Below are positions 58,260 to 62,101 of a stretch of DNA of 64,000 nt, piece by piece. Below the pieces are notes generated by a model, which had not been told where the DNA came from, ran no database searches, and saw only the letters and a program-made list of their open reading frames with translations. The DNA lies in assembly GCA_041605955.1 (NCBI GenBank), contig JBFIXI010000006.1, forward strand, positions 26,853 through 90,852. Direction: 5' to 3'. The stretch's first letter is position 1. Each line of letters opens with the position of its first letter. A program made the translations under genes and the position numbers. Source of the DNA: Acidimicrobiia bacterium (GTDB lineage: Bacteria > Actinomycetota > Acidimicrobiia > Spongiisociales > UBA5794).

Positions 58260-58976
58260 CTAGGGACAGGAGGCGCACTCCAGCGCAGGCTCCGCCCGGA
58301 CTGCCGAGATTAGGCCGGCGGGGCCGCCGATCATCGTTGTATTGAGGTCCCAGTCGGTGTAAACGAGCCACGAGCGGTCGGTCGGCCACCAGTTCTGCGG
58401 GGTGCCGGCCACGGCACCAGAGTGGCTGAGACCGATCACCTCGGCGAGCTCTCCCTTCATCACCAACGGCTCAAGAGCTTCGGTGGCCAGCATGCAGAAG
58501 TAGAAGTAGCAGGCGCCCGGGGCCGTCCATTTGGCCAGGATCGGGACCAGGGCCGTCAACGAGGATGCGTCCAGAGAGCCCTCAGGGGGCGGCTGGATCG
58601 CAGCAGGAAAGCTGGCCCCGACGCCGGTTCGCAGCGATCCGGACAGGTCAACCTGAGTCTCATCGAGGACGACCGCATAGCGGGCGAGCAGCTCGCGCCA
58701 CCGCAACCTCGCCGAGTTGGCCGGCTGCTGGACGATCCCGAGAGGGATTCCGGGGGCGACTGCCCCTCGCAGGATGGAGTCGACTGGGCCGTCGGATGGA
58801 GCGGCGGTCCGCTTGGCGAGGTCGTCCCACGTCATCTCCGGCATCCCGGGGGTTTCGTACATGGCGTGCAGTATTCGCACGCATTCGGCGAATTCTCGAG
58901 GGGGAACCCCGGCGAAGACTTCCTCGAGCGATAGGCCTGTCCACTGCAGCGCCGCGGCGGCGTCCACCCGCTCCAT
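58260..58976 (-). CDS. hypothetical protein
   Basis: 238-aa ORF with good coding statistics and no recognisable motif. Confidence 0.45.
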   Translation of the reverse strand: MERVDAAAALQWTGLSLEEVFAGVPPREFAECVRILHAMYETPGMPEMTWDDLAKRTAAPSDGPVDSILRGAVAPGIPLGIVQQPANSARLRWRELLARYAVVLDETQVDLSGSLRTGVGASFPAAIQPPPEGSLDASSLTALVPILAKWTAPGACYFYFCMLATEALEPLVMKGELAEVIGLSHSGAVAGTPQNWWPTDRSWLVYTDWDLNTTMIGGPAGLISAVRAEPALECASCP

Positions 58977-59032
58977 TCCCTCAGTTTGGCATTCTCTCCC
59001 TTCGAGCCGGCGGCAGGGATCCTCCCCCCTTC

Positions 59033-59099
59033 GAGCCGGAGGCTCGATTGTGTGGACCTGTAAACCATGTCACAGGTCCACACAAGCCGGAGGCTCGAT
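59033..59099. repeat. 34-bp palindromic element (GTGTGGACCTGT-N10-ACAGGTCCACAC) flanked by 16-bp direct repeats AGCCGGAGGCTCGATT
   Basis: Read directly from the sequence. An adjacent 12-bp direct repeat CCTTCGAGCCGG lies at 58998 and 59027, and a G-rich tract at 59100-59145. Confidence 0.6.
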
Positions 59100-59257
59100 T
59101 TGGGGGGAGTACCCGGCGGGGAGGGGGCGAGGGGGGGTTTGGGTGAGGCCCTGCGCCGGTAGGTGGTTGTGGTACTGCCGATGGCCAGACGTCCCGAGTA
59201 GAAGCTGAGTCGCGGGTCAGACCTGTATCCGCGGGGCGAGTTCCCCCGTGTCGGTGT

Positions 59258-59386
59258 TGTTCTCGCGTCTTGGCTGCGCCCTCCGCCTTGCTGGATTCGG
59301 CACCTCCCTCAACGCTCGCCCCCCCCTCGTTCGTAGCAGGGCTCGCTGCGGGAGGAGTGTTCTCGCGCCTTGGCTGTCCCCTCCGC
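59258..59386. repeat. two 29-bp imperfect direct repeats (TGTTCTCGCGYCTTGGCTG..CCCTCCGC) 100 bp apart, upstream of the DUF1801 gene
   Basis: 26 of 29 positions identical. The repeats lie in a non-coding leader. The track ORF that covers them has no protein-like composition there. Confidence 0.55.
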
Positions 59387-59418
59387 GTCGCCTGTGGCCC
59401 GGGGTACCCTCCGGCACG

Positions 59419-59772
59419 ATGAGTCCTGAAGAGCTGATCGCCGAGCACGTTGCGCCCGTTGCCGACCTCGCTCGGGAGCTGCGTACCTTGGTGCGAGCGG
59501 CGATGGCCGACGCCGAGGAGCGCGTCTATCCCGGCTGGCACGGCTTGGGCTACATCCATCCTGAGGCCGGCTACGTGTGTGGGATCTTCCCACGGGGCGA
59601 CCATGTGCGGCTGGGGTTCGAGCACGGCCATCTGCTGCCAGACCCGGACGGCCTGCTGACCGCCGCAGGAAGCCAGGTGCGCTACGTGGTCGTGCAGCCC
59701 GGGACCACCCTCCCGGCCACCGGAATCCGCGACCTGATCGCCGACGCCGTCGAGCTGCGAGCTGGGCGGTGA
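59419..59772 (+). CDS. DUF1801-like small protein
   Basis: ATG at 59419, 117 aa. Confidence 0.5.
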   Translation: MSPEELIAEHVAPVADLARELRTLVRAAMADAEERVYPGWHGLGYIHPEAGYVCGIFPRGDHVRLGFEHGHLLPDPDGLLTAAGSQVRYVVVQPGTTLPATGIRDLIADAVELRAGR

Positions 59773-60590: not shown

Positions 60591-60971
60591 ATGGAACGGC
60601 CCACGATGCGCATCTCGGCCACGGTTCTCGGCGGCCCCGACCCGGGGGCGCTGGCTCGCTTCTATCAGCGGCTGCTCGGATGGAACATCACATACGAGGA
60701 GCCGGATTGGGTGATGCTGCGACCTCCGGACGGCGGCACCGGCCTCTCCTTCCAGACCGAGATCGACCACGTGCCGCCCGTGTGGCCGGCGGGGTCGGGC
60801 GATCAGCAGATGATGATGCACCTCGACATCGGCGTCGAGGATCTCGACGCCGGCGTCACCTGGGCCGTCGAGGCGGGTGCCACGCTGGCGAGCCACCAAC
60901 CGCAGGACGACGTCAGGGTGATGCTCGATCCGGCCGGACATCCGTTCTGCTTGTTCCCCAGCGGTGGCTGA
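60591..60971 (+). CDS. VOC (glyoxalase/bleomycin-resistance) family protein
   Basis: Beta-alpha-beta-beta-beta modules with metal-ligand-like His and Glu residues. Confidence 0.6.
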   Translation: MERPTMRISATVLGGPDPGALARFYQRLLGWNITYEEPDWVMLRPPDGGTGLSFQTEIDHVPPVWPAGSGDQQMMMHLDIGVEDLDAGVTWAVEAGATLASHQPQDDVRVMLDPAGHPFCLFPSGG

Positions 60972-60979
60972 GTCGGGAG

Positions 60980-62101
60980 TCAGAGGTCGGGGGTCGCCTC
61001 TCGGGTGATCACATACGCTTCGTCGTTGAACCAGAGGCGGTCGTAGCGGCTCATCACGTCTCGGGTCGCCGCGAGGTAGCGACCTGAATCGATCGCCTCT
61101 GTGAGCCGGTCCTCGTCGATCTGGGCCACGTATGCGGCGGCATTCCAGGCCGCCAACACCGAGGAGGTTCCGATGTGCTCGGTCATCTCGGAAGGCATGG
61201 TGTGGAGTATGTACGGGAAGATGGCTTCCTCGTCGGGCACGTCATCGAACGATATGTCGGGGGCGACGCCGACATCGGCGAGGGCTTTGAAGAGATCGTG
61301 GCGGTTAGTGCGAAACGGGTTCTCGTCGGGCCAGACGTTGCGGATTATCTCCAGGGCGGGGTCGTTGCCGGCGGCGTGTATTCCGATGAAACGTCCTCCA
61401 GGCGCCAGCGCCGCCACCAGCGGGGCCACCACCATGCGCACCTTGGTCTCGGCGCTCGTGGCCGCCCGGTAGGGCTGGCTGGCAACGATCAGCTCGTATT
61501 CGATATCGGTCCCCCCGGGATGGGGAATGACATCGCGCAACAGGAACTCGCGGTCGTGGCGATAGATCACGTGCACTGCGGGCTGCACCGGTATCGGGTT
61601 GCCCGTCTTGGGGCTCGTCGTGACTTCCCAGTCGGCGGCGAACTGCAGGTGAAGCTTCTGCAGTTGCACGGCATAGTCATGGGCGGTGGCCCCCTCCAAA
61701 GCGGTGGTGCGCCACACCACGTCCTCATCGAGGAAGTTGCCCAGGTGGACTGCCTGGCGGTAGGGCATGTTGGTCACCACGAACACCAACTCCGGATGCT
61801 CGAAGAAGCGGTCGGGCATCGAGTCGACCGCCCGGCGGACGTCCTCGATCGATACCTCCTTGCCGACGATGAGCCATGGGACGTGGGTGAACACCTGGTG
61901 GAGGCGGCGCATGAGATGGATGAGCACGGTGGCGTCCCCCATGCCGGCGTCGAAGATGCGCAGCGCCTTGTCCTTTGGTTCCAGGTGCTGAAGCTCGCGG
62001 CTGACACGCTCCGCTACGGCCGCCTTCTCGTTCGTCGTGGTGACGAACATGTTGTAGGCGGCCCGGCTGTCAAAGAAGCGGTTGGGGGACTGCTCGGTCA
62101 C
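60980..62101 (-). CDS. putative class I SAM-dependent methyltransferase-like protein
   Basis: Motif I-like IFDAGMGDATV. The rest of the 373-aa protein is unassigned. Confidence 0.4.
   Translation of the reverse strand: MTEQSPNRFFDSRAAYNMFVTTTNEKAAVAERVSRELQHLEPKDKALRIFDAGMGDATVLIHLMRRLHQVFTHVPWLIVGKEVSIEDVRRAVDSMPDRFFEHPELVFVVTNMPYRQAVHLGNFLDEDVVWRTTALEGATAHDYAVQLQKLHLQFAADWEVTTSPKTGNPIPVQPAVHVIYRHDREFLLRDVIPHPGGTDIEYELIVASQPYRAATSAETKVRMVVAPLVAALAPGGRFIGIHAAGNDPALEIIRNVWPDENPFRTNRHDLFKALADVGVAPDISFDDVPDEEAIFPYILHTMPSEMTEHIGTSSVLAAWNAAAYVAQIDEDRLTEAIDSGRYLAATRDVMSRYDRLWFNDEAYVITREATPDL

Follow-up and report, generated by a model that had tools for sequence, protein, structure and literature searches.

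Repeats and a perfect hairpin that look like fast-changing spacer DNA beside an accessory gene in an Acidimicrobiia bacterium

INTRODUCTION

What is a long, repeat-rich and palindromic stretch of non-coding DNA doing in a gene-dense bacterial locus? The question is raised by a spacer in an Acidimicrobiia bacterium (GenBank assembly GCA_041605955.1, contig JBFIXI010000006.1), which we analysed within a 64-kb stretch of that contig, hereafter called the window. The original prediction, made from the sequence alone, had rightly called the spacer long: it measures 442 bp, versus 8–72 bp for the neighbouring gene-to-gene gaps (bar a short overlap of the DUF1801 and GDPD genes). It had also listed a hairpin bracketed by direct repeats, a G-rich tract and two further direct repeats, all of which are present at the positions given for them and exceed chance expectation, and had proposed a small RNA, tandem operator sites, a remnant of a miniature mobile element or a site-specific recombination site. 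The picture reached here is that the repeats and the hairpin look like unstable, fast-changing spacer DNA beside an accessory gene of recent arrival; they resemble neither a small RNA nor a mobile element nor any known regulatory RNA.

RESULTS

Gene context of the spacer

The features discussed below are located in Table 1. The genes around the spacer encode peptidase, YtxH-like, DUF1801, GDPD, glyoxalase and glutaredoxin proteins, and two are without assigned family. The 238-aa protein encoded next to the spacer gave no family match in Pfam, NCBIfam or PADLOC, and no fold neighbour was found in the PDB for its AlphaFold2 model (pLDDT 85.5, pTM 0.84). Its homologues, at most 40% identical, are scattered in Actinobacteria in unrelated contexts and also occur on Streptomyces plasmids; the one in Trebonia adjoins IS66. 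A scan of the genome collection with the DUF1801 protein returned distant proteobacterial and Deinococcota loci only.

No coding signal was found in the spacer, and its only internal ORFs are frameshifted by a 2-nt indel polymorphism. A 50-aa ORF whose stop codon overlaps the DUF1801 start was rejected as coding because of this common indel; so was a 174-aa N-terminal extension of DUF1801, the homologues of which are also 117 aa long and begin at the 117-aa position. The spacer must still hold the promoters of both divergent genes; a consensus scan of positions 58800–59600 found no sigma-70-type promoter and no terminator.

In the closest syntenic relative (L023/L024) the order is aminopeptidase N, a small YtxH-like gene, a terminator, a 143-bp spacer, DUF1801 and GDPD. 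Since both the 238-aa gene and the long spacer are missing from this relative, the region is a lineage-specific insertion. A comparison of orthologous loci, suggested by the original prediction, thus gave the outcome expected of inserted DNA, the region not being conserved in place.

Table 1. Position of the spacer, its sequence features and its flanking genes in the window
Feature	Position	Strand	Remarks
Non-coding spacer	58977..59418	.	442 bp, between two divergent genes
238-aa orphan accessory gene	58260..58976	-	ORF; transcription directed away from the spacer
DUF1801 gene, 117 aa	59419..59772	+	Pfam PF08818, E = 1.9e-8; leads a DUF1801-GDPD-glyoxalase run
17-nt direct repeat CCCTTCGAGCCGG[C/A]GGC	58998-59014 and 59027-59043	+	Family D2, 16/17 identical
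Imperfect palindrome, nested hairpins	59017..59114	.	98 nt, encloses the perfect core
Small palindrome TCGAGCC-GGA-GGCTCGA	59031..59047	.	Read from the sequence; inverted repeats I3, I4
16-bp direct repeat AGCCGGAGGCTCGATT, copy 1	59034..59049	+	Repeat search
16-bp direct repeat AGCCGGAGGCTCGATT, copy 2	59085..59100	+	Missing in the L-type haplotype
Perfect hairpin	59048..59085	.	14-bp arms TTGTGTGGACCTGT / ACAGGTCCACACAA, 10-nt spacer AAACCATGTC
CRP-family-like site TGTAA-N6-TCACA	59059..59074	.	Centred on the hairpin axis; TGTAAACCATGTCACA, 1 mismatch
G-rich tract	59100..59145	+	G-quadruplex motif 59118-59143, G7 run 59131-37; missing in L-type
'A element', ~150 nt	59151..59301	+	Diverged version A' in L-type; last 34 nt = repeat copy A
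34-nt direct repeat, copy A	59258..59291	+	Originally predicted 29-bp repeat, extended
34-nt direct repeat, copy B	59358..59391	+	28 nt upstream of the DUF1801 start codon; bears SNP 59377T>C
C8 homopolymer	59319..59326	+	C8/C6 length polymorphism in the population

Repeats and palindromes

The hairpin has the 10-nt loop ascribed to it (AAACCATGTC), but its perfect arms, at 59048–59061 and 59072–59085, are 14 bp long and not 12. It is the longest perfect hairpin (loop 3–20 nt) of the window, where just three others reach arms of at least 11 bp, and it appeared in none of 100 shuffles, even with 3 mismatches tolerated. Two palindromes had been overlooked, the small one at 59031–59047 and the 98-nt one around the perfect core. 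When compared with the opposite strand, 59017–59114 matches itself at 72% identity over 106 columns (E = 1e-8); the region folds into one long hairpin (−70 kcal/mol for 121 nt), and no significant signal extends the palindrome past 59114. Because 59031–59047 is palindromic, the flanks of the hairpin resemble both direct and inverted repeats.

The 16-bp flanking repeat is real (0.05 expected by chance). The repeat said to lie just upstream of it is present as well, but as 17 nt at 16/17 identity rather than as 12 bp; similarly, the 29-bp repeats at 59258 and 59358 (0.00 expected) reach 34 nt at 85% identity. Behind the latter stands a larger unit that had been missed, the A element. The suggested G-quadruplex potential is found at 59118–59143, where four G runs of at least three are joined by loops of 1–7 nt, the only motif of this type on the plus strand of the window. 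Homopolymers of at least 6 nt are frequent, 4 of the window's 31 lying inside the 442 bp, including the longest (C8, 59319–26).

Polymorphism in the natural population

Public assemblies from the same population (99.6–99.9% identical) break repeatedly within the spacer. The polymorphism of the region in nature had not been noticed originally. The window-type haplotype was found again in L006, L046 and L011, and a second one, the L-type, is carried by two assemblies, L001 (SRR29257472) and L045 (SRR29257503). Both match the window at 99.9% or more, with 1–2 common SNPs, up to 59061, the end of the left arm, and then diverge: the 10-nt loop is inverted, the arms measure just 6 bp, there is neither a second 16-bp repeat nor a G tract, and the DNA distal to A' is unrelated to the window. 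The loss of the right arm, second repeat and G tract from the L-type, together with the relative that lacks the whole region, bears out the idea of insertion-like, unstable DNA. The left flank shows two common SNPs between the haplotypes in 4.2 kb, and A and A' differ by more than 20%: they are identical in 118 of 158 columns (75–79% identity), with internal indels of 1, 2 and 1 nt, and the longest exact stretch in the alignments is 13 nt, so that no long identical core is common to both. A gene of the L-type block, gene X, has a best homologue that is 65% identical and without usable context, and a tblastx search gave high-GC noise only.

L006 and L046 start at 59032, which is the start predicted by a k=31 de Bruijn graph if both types coexist. 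In principle, a repeat of at least 31 nt elsewhere in the genome could also have produced the L-type contigs, reproducibly, as chimeras of the assembly graph. Contig ends recur at other points too, with three contigs breaking off at 59055, five beginning at 59158 and a single one (L011) beginning at 59085. A modelled 102-nt deletion (59056–59157) reproduces both the 59055 ends and the 59158 starts, and a modelled repeat-to-repeat deletion reproduces the 59085 start; contig ends elsewhere coincide with SNPs. The recurrent ends thus fit further indel haplotypes.

Seven variable sites were counted in 261 bp of spacer, whereas the flanking genes have about 9 over 3.5 kb and 4 over 4.1 kb, which makes the spacer approximately tenfold more polymorphic. 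One of the seven is a 2-nt change in the C8 tract: deletion of 59319–20 (C8 to C6) is found in 8 of the 13 population contigs that span it.

Relation between the two hairpin haplotypes

The loops of the window (AAACCATGTC) and of the L-type (GACATGGCTT) are reverse complements with one mismatch, the arms around them being 14 and 6 bp long. More generally, when the L-type left arm and spacer are reverse-complemented, window positions 59062–59085 agree with them in 23 of 24 positions, versus 9 of 24 in a collinear comparison. Such a reverse-complement relation is the classic signature of replication template switching, and its hallmarks at quasi-palindromes are found here (clustered differences, homogenised arms and an inverted spacer). 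Template switching with arm extension from 5 to 16 bp and spacer inversion has been described at yeast REG2 (PMC8604942), and the creation of RNA hairpins by the same process has also been reported (PMC8794818).

Template switching accounts cleanly for 59062–59085 only; the G tract, the additional 16-bp repeat and the A/A' element fall outside it. The near-identity of the left flank between the haplotypes, set against a divergence of over 20% between A and A' and an unrelated distal flank, calls for an extra recombination or replacement event ending at the hairpin. The sole syntenic relative lacks the whole region and does not polarise the change.

Alternative explanations

Protein binding was considered in the light of the CRP-like site. 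The core of the hairpin may be a putative operator of a dimeric regulator, likeliest from the CRP/FNR family, that would control the 238-aa gene, the extended arms being incidental or adding affinity. We regard this as unlikely. TGTAAACCATGTCACA at 59059–59074 is the sole match to TGTGA-N6-TCACA with at most one mismatch in 64 kb, its centre coincides exactly with the axis of the palindrome and lies ~90 bp from the 238-aa start codon, within a divergent promoter region, and the L-type counterpart, TGTGA-N6-TTACA, retains a 9/10 match to a consensus that is conserved across phyla (PMC10187061). However, 1.04 such sites are expected by chance in 64 kb (at least one was present in 66 of 100 shuffles), the match emerged after the core had been compared with about a dozen remembered motifs, and a palindrome automatically doubles any half-site match. 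Moreover, in the 400 nt preceding each of four genes homologous to the 238-aa ORF there is no CRP-like site with up to 2 mismatches and no shared hairpin, and the DUF1801 leader of the relative is also without the site. One 14-bp hairpin was seen upstream of these homologues, which is the terminator of a neighbouring gene.

The L-type may alternatively represent an exchangeable segment, that is, a larger inserted or replaced block (a pseudogene remnant, a terminator, gene X and more) with the hairpin and A' on its left and A on its right, the spacer being a recombination junction or an insertion hot spot. The collinearity up to 59061 followed by a 75–79% identical version of 59151–59301 and then by unrelated DNA, in two samples, is what such a block would give; five independent contigs start at 59158, at the left edge of A, as if another haplotype rejoined there; a partial third A-type copy (B) lies 66 nt downstream; and the 238-aa family behaves as a wandering accessory gene, as its IS66 and plasmid contexts indicate. 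The right junction was never observed, however, the 102-nt deletion haplotype is the more economical explanation of the contigs that start at 59158 or end at 59055, no integrase or transposase occurs among the Pfam-matched immediate neighbours, A and A' have no long identical core, and no other copy of A was detected by nhmmer in the window or in the fetched loci. We therefore hold an exchangeable segment to be doubtful. A more elaborate version is quite improbable: the junctions of a recombinase-independent cassette-swapping hot spot would be formed by the hairpin, CRP-like core included, and by the ~150-nt A repeats; the accessory block between one pair of conserved genes would vary from strain to strain, and exchange would start at the palindrome and resolve in the A repeats, much like an integron site without an integrase. 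In a milder form of this idea, the state of the hairpin (6- or 14-bp arms, spacer orientation) and the homopolymer length could together form a heritable switch controlling how the accessory gene is expressed.

Site-specific recombination, as originally envisaged, is not supported by the haplotypes. A tyrosine-recombinase core would have an identical overlap of 6–8 bp with a recombinase nearby; here the spacers are 10 nt long and reverse-complementary, not identical, and no recombinase is found among the Pfam-matched immediate neighbours. A tRNA-linked att site was ruled out, as ARAGORN found no tRNA or tmRNA in the whole window, and integron attC, IS200/IS605 TTAC targeting and Xer/dif-like sites were discarded because their defining motifs or enzymes are absent.

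The proposal of a small RNA fared no better. A structured regulatory RNA within 59100–59418, be it a small RNA or, for the DUF1801-GDPD operon, a leader or riboswitch, is very improbable. In its favour, folding of the plus strand is somewhat more stable than that of shuffles (z = −2.4), pairing is possible between the G-rich tract and C-rich tracts (inverted repeats I2, I7 and I9), and the repeats hold CCCTCC motifs resembling anti-Shine-Dalgarno sequences. The covariance-model search recommended originally matched no Rfam family at the gathering threshold in the window, L001 or L023, and, at E values up to 10, the region gave just eukaryotic lncRNA, miRNA and snoRNA noise. The consensus scan mentioned above yielded neither promoter nor terminator, and SNPs and indels are about ten times as dense as in the flanking genes. 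A fold conserved between A and A' was rejected, since their predicted structures disagree. The relative's DUF1801 leader is only ~100 nt long and its similarity to copies A and B is within the range of shuffles, which also disposes of copy B as the ancestral DUF1801 leader. As an intrinsic terminator the hairpin was set aside because a GC-rich stem-loop should be followed by a T/U run, and what follows it reads AAGCCGG (plus strand) or AATCGAG (minus strand); the genes on either side are divergent.

There is likewise very little chance that a MITE-like non-autonomous element is involved, its palindromic insert being 35 bp long and its target-site duplication 16 bp: the geometry of direct repeat, palindrome and direct repeat suits it, L011 starts at 59085 as expected of a repeat-to-repeat 'empty site' and that predicted empty site is itself a clean hairpin, but no second copy of the hairpin turned up in the 64 kb even at a tolerance of 3 mismatches, the insert is far below typical MITE size, and the L-type is a complex rearrangement with no clean presence or absence of a unit. 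A duplication of 16 bp is outside the usual range of target-site duplications, and the 16-bp repeat, taken originally for a duplicated flank, belongs to the nested palindrome. The copy-number check proposed originally, run on the 64-kb window, placed the 16-bp and 29-bp repeats at this locus only. Elsewhere, the 29-nt repeat pattern had 0 matches in the genome collection, and a 20-mer of flank plus arm had 0 in JGI metagenome contigs; the arm pattern had 9 in metagenomes against ~5 by chance, heterogeneous and with no flanks in common, and these were not accepted as a family. Scans of the viral collection returned the same phage-like contig or nothing, with no relative of the region, and BLAST of the spacer against plasmids and phages gave no match. 

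DISCUSSION

The spacer is a mutational hot spot. The reading that we prefer, to which we assign a probability of roughly 55%, is that this non-coding DNA came with, or arose by, the insertion of the 238-aa gene, is nearly unconstrained, and owes its architecture to replication errors as a by-product. An accessory 238-aa ORF would have been inserted between two conserved genes, bringing or creating a spacer that has since evolved with almost no constraint. A short quasi-palindrome with 6-bp arms, as in the L-type, would have served as the switch point, where the polymerase may have copied the left arm and the spacer off the complementary template, leaving arms of 14 bp and an inverted spacer. 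We infer that the change ran in this direction, from L-like to window-like. Slippage between direct repeats and in homopolymers would have shaped the rest, and the layout of direct repeat, palindrome and direct repeat, with the homopolymers, is probably itself unstable, which would be why several length variants are present in the population. The spacer as such would have no dedicated function. As a counterpoint, selection for protein binding could underlie the perfect 14-bp arms and the CRP-like motif that both haplotypes carry on the axis.

If replication error is indeed the origin, the locus offers a clean natural example, in an uncultured high-GC bacterium, of a 6-bp quasi-palindrome turned into a long perfect hairpin by template switching, both hairpin states still segregating in a region without a dedicated function. 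For genome scanning it would be a caution that repeat geometry that looks designed, next to an accessory gene, can be mutational debris, and repeated contig breaks in metagenome assemblies can flag such sites. The locus would gain greater weight if the hairpin were a regulator-binding site or a junction for the exchange of accessory genes.

Four known systems invite comparison. Bacterial MITEs and the REP/BIME, ERIC and Correia families are also intergenic imperfect palindromes with flanking direct repeats and strain-variable presence; unlike them, the element described here has no second copy in 64 kb or in the searched collections, its 35-bp core and 16-bp flank do not follow the family pattern of size and target duplication, and no cognate transposase or RAYT was seen nearby. 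The candidate site resembles CRP/GlxR operators in 9 of 10 consensus positions, in the correct 6-nt spacing, in its symmetry axis and in its location in a divergent promoter region, but it is not conserved upstream of the homologues, chance would give about one per window, and the perfect symmetry runs 9 bp past either end of the motif, further than a CRP site needs. With contingency loci the spacer shares G7 and C8 tracts in promoter-bearing DNA and a tract-length polymorphism in the population (C8/C6), although the change observed is of 2 nt and high-GC genomes acquire such runs more easily by chance. Finally, the extension of the arms from 6 to 14 bp and the inversion of the 10-nt spacer parallel quasi-palindrome template switching at E. 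coli hot spots and at yeast REG2 (PMC8604942); the 10-nt spacer exceeds that of most described cases, and the event sits in a larger rearrangement (G tract missing, A diverged, distal flank different) that switching alone does not explain. A further difference from those cases lies in the setting: here the change segregates in an uncultured population and falls between genes.

Sequence features of the spacer

All features listed in the original prediction for the 442-bp spacer between the divergent 238-aa gene and the DUF1801 gene are present in the sequence, although some of their limits had to be redrawn. The hairpin is real, with arms of 14 bp instead of 12 bp. No other perfect hairpin in the 64-kb window is as long, and arms of at least 11 bp occur in only three of them (at least one an obvious terminator). 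With up to three mismatches allowed, it was recovered 0 times in window shuffles. As described, a 16-bp direct repeat (AGCCGGAGGCTCGATT) brackets it. Both other direct repeats are longer than stated: the upstream one measures 17 nt, and the 29-bp one 34 nt (85% identity). The G tract, which has an 11-nt period, contains the sole G-quadruplex motif on the plus strand of the window. Of 31 homopolymer runs of at least 6 nt in the window, the spacer has four, among them the longest of all (C8). Two features had been missed: TCGAGCC-GGA-GGCTCGA is palindromic in itself, so that the hairpin flanks can be read as direct and as inverted repeats, and a single 98-nt imperfect palindrome is predicted to fold as one long hairpin.

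Features of the spacer and neighbouring genes (window positions)
Feature	Position	Strand	Remark
Repeat protein gene, 81 aa	57942-58187		weak YtxH-like match
238-aa ORF	58260-58976	minus	divergent from DUF1801
Spacer	58977-59418		442 bp
Imperfect palindrome	59017-59114		98 nt
TCGAGCC-GGA-GGCTCGA	59031-47		palindrome
16-bp direct repeat	59034 and 59085		two copies
Perfect hairpin	59048-59061 and 59072-59085		arms 14 bp, loop AAACCATGTC
G-quadruplex motif	59118-59143	plus
A element	59151-59301		~150 nt
34-nt repeat, copies A and B	59258 and 59358
DUF1801 gene	59419-59772	plus	117 aa; then GDPD, then glyoxalase
Glyoxalase-like and 373-aa genes	60591-62101		between GDPD and glutaredoxin

Haplotypes in the natural population

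Population data were taken from public short-read assemblies (Logan contigs) of two sample series, 99.6–99.9% identical to the window; none of these contigs spans the whole spacer in the window configuration. L001 (SRR29257472) and L045 (SRR29257503), contigs of two different samples, agree with the window as far as 59061, where the left arm ends, bar one or two common SNPs, and diverge beyond it. In their configuration, termed L-type, the loop is inverted (GACATGGCTT versus AAACCATGTC in the window), the right arm consists of ACAGGT only, and neither the second 16-bp repeat nor any of the G tract is present. A', a diverged version of the A element, follows; it matches A in 118 of 158 alignment columns, with indels of 1, 2 and 1 nt. 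The DNA after it is unrelated and comprises the remnant of an ORF lacking a start, a terminator hairpin and the 3' end of a further gene. The open frame without a start codon (L001 230–420; …SWASAWLLEANTPRPPGYNGLYDWWTTLEIHNGHRVLCVYANL…), which lies between the strong terminator hairpin and A', gave no match in Pfam and is probably the remnant of a pseudogene.

The window configuration was found independently in three contigs (L006, L046 and L011). In a k=31 de Bruijn simulation with both types coexisting, window-type contigs start exactly at 59032, as L006 and L046 do. In principle, a repeat of at least 31 nt elsewhere in the genome could make the L-type contigs reproducible graph chimeras. 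Since contig ends elsewhere fall on SNPs, the recurrent limits within the spacer (ends at 59055 in three samples, starts at 59158 in five samples and a start at 59085) suggest further variants. The 59055 end and the 59158 start both follow from a single 102-nt deletion (59056–59157), and the 59085 start from a repeat-to-repeat deletion; a C6-to-C4 change would likewise give the 59055 end. From these contig ends we infer that haplotypes beyond the window type and the L-type exist.

Constraint on the spacer is low: 261 bp of it have 7 variable sites, one being a C8/C6 length change at 59319–20, against about 9 over 3.5 kb and 4 over 4.1 kb of flanking genes. This 2-nt indel also ruled out small spacer ORFs and an N-terminally extended DUF1801. 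At 59377, in repeat copy B, the T of the window is the minority allele; C, found in 10 of the 14 population contigs covering the site, brings copy B closer to copy A and to A'.

Flanking genes and the syntenic relative

The 238-aa protein has no family in Pfam, NCBIfam or PADLOC. Its homologues are distant (at most 40% identical) singletons scattered over Actinobacteria in unrelated neighbourhoods, one of them adjoining an IS66 transposase; further homologues are carried by Streptomyces plasmids. The AlphaFold2 model is confident (pLDDT 85.5, pTM 0.84) and has no fold neighbour in the PDB. The protein is a wandering singleton of an unannotated actinobacterial family of ~250 aa, whose conserved motifs include LHAMYE, PPPEGSLD and NxWPxDRSWxVxTDWDL. 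The closest syntenic relative available (L023/L024; DUF1801 66% identical to that of the window) has the order aminopeptidase N, small YtxH-like gene with its terminator, 143 bp, DUF1801–GDPD. Since it has no 238-aa gene and only 143 bp ahead of DUF1801, the gene and its structured spacer are, on this comparison, a lineage-specific insertion of ~1.1 kb. GC content is about 67%; this figure and the names of the homologues suggest a high-GC actinobacterium as the source.

Most public gene calls for DUF1801 (database entry P0063) take a downstream start giving 89 aa, likely a start-site mis-annotation since homologues and the Pfam match favour the 117-aa start at 59419. The glyoxalase-like gene (126 aa) and the 373-aa gene, the latter with no Pfam or NCBIfam family, are missing from L023, where GDPD abuts glutaredoxin; they make up another accessory insertion, which lies about 1 kb away from that of the 238-aa gene. 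The 81-aa protein is built of ~22-aa internal repeats (KGK[E/D]MAG...AGD.AEGAWDK), the number of which varies, as the relative's version has 69 aa.

Origin of the hairpin

Read as their reverse complement, the L-type left arm and spacer agree with window positions 59062–59085 (hairpin spacer and right arm) at 23 of 24 positions; the collinear L-type sequence agrees at only 9 of 24. The window type has arms of 14 bp, the L-type arms of 6 bp. When DNA polymerase switches template at short inverted repeats, the textbook result is extension or homogenisation of the arms together with inversion of the spacer. Because the relation between the two types fits this outcome, the hairpin is best explained as a product of mutation rather than of design. 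The 16-, 17- and 34-nt repeats, the G-tract period and the homopolymers are consistent with slippage-type duplication in unconstrained DNA. We give a probability of roughly 0.55 to the reading in which a spacer next to an inserted accessory gene evolves fast, takes its shape from template switching and slippage, and segregates in several structural haplotypes.

To the left of the hairpin the haplotypes are essentially identical, with two common SNPs over 4.2 kb. A and A', by contrast, are more than 20% different, and further out the flank is unrelated. Template switching cannot account for these differences; they require a recombination or replacement event with its end point at the hairpin. 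A block open to exchange might lie between A-type repeats.

At its centre the hairpin has TGTAA-N6-TCACA (TGTGA-N6-TTACA in the L-type), one mismatch from the CRP-family consensus, which is widely conserved (PMC10187061). It is the sole such site in the window, with about one per 64 kb expected by chance, and the match came after several other motifs had been tried. The 238-aa gene has its start codon ~90 bp downstream of the centre of the site; no CRP-like site was found upstream of four 238-aa homologues. The core is a possible candidate operator, a lead rather than a finding. The region would be of larger significance only if this core or the A-repeat junction were functional.

Other readings fared less well. 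Rfam gave no family in the spacer, and there was no tRNA, tmRNA or promoter/terminator consensus. No second copy of the hairpin, flank repeat, 29-bp repeat or A element was found in the window or any fetched locus, plasmids and phages had no match to the spacer, and exact-pattern scans of genome, metagenome and viral collections gave none; the arm pattern alone returned nine unrelated hairpins, versus roughly five by chance. The predicted folds of A and A' differ. Given these negatives, a MITE, a small RNA, a tyrosine-recombinase site and a riboswitch-like leader are all unsupported. The original interpretation is supported in part: it holds for unstable, insertion-associated DNA, and is unsupported for the first three of these forms.

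On a phage-like contig (L031 3440–3670; same sequence in L036 and L044; IMG/VR UViG_3300009181_002905, 27.5 kb), a palindrome, GTGTGGACCTGTCCC-TAGTA-GGGGACAGGTCCACAC, shares the outer 12 bp of each arm with the window hairpin, probably by coincidence since the search pattern fixed 10 of the 12 bases. Immediately upstream of this palindrome stand six or more GGGACAGGT iterons, which overlap a 742-aa primase-helicase-like ORF at its 3' end; the ensemble looks like a replication origin.

Template switching is known to generate perfect hairpins (PMC8794818), and in one case arms of 5 bp became arms of 16 bp with inversion of the spacer (PMC8604942). The window and L-type pair resembles such cases in its longer arms and inverted spacer, and the template-switched spacer would be a new example of a known phenomenon.
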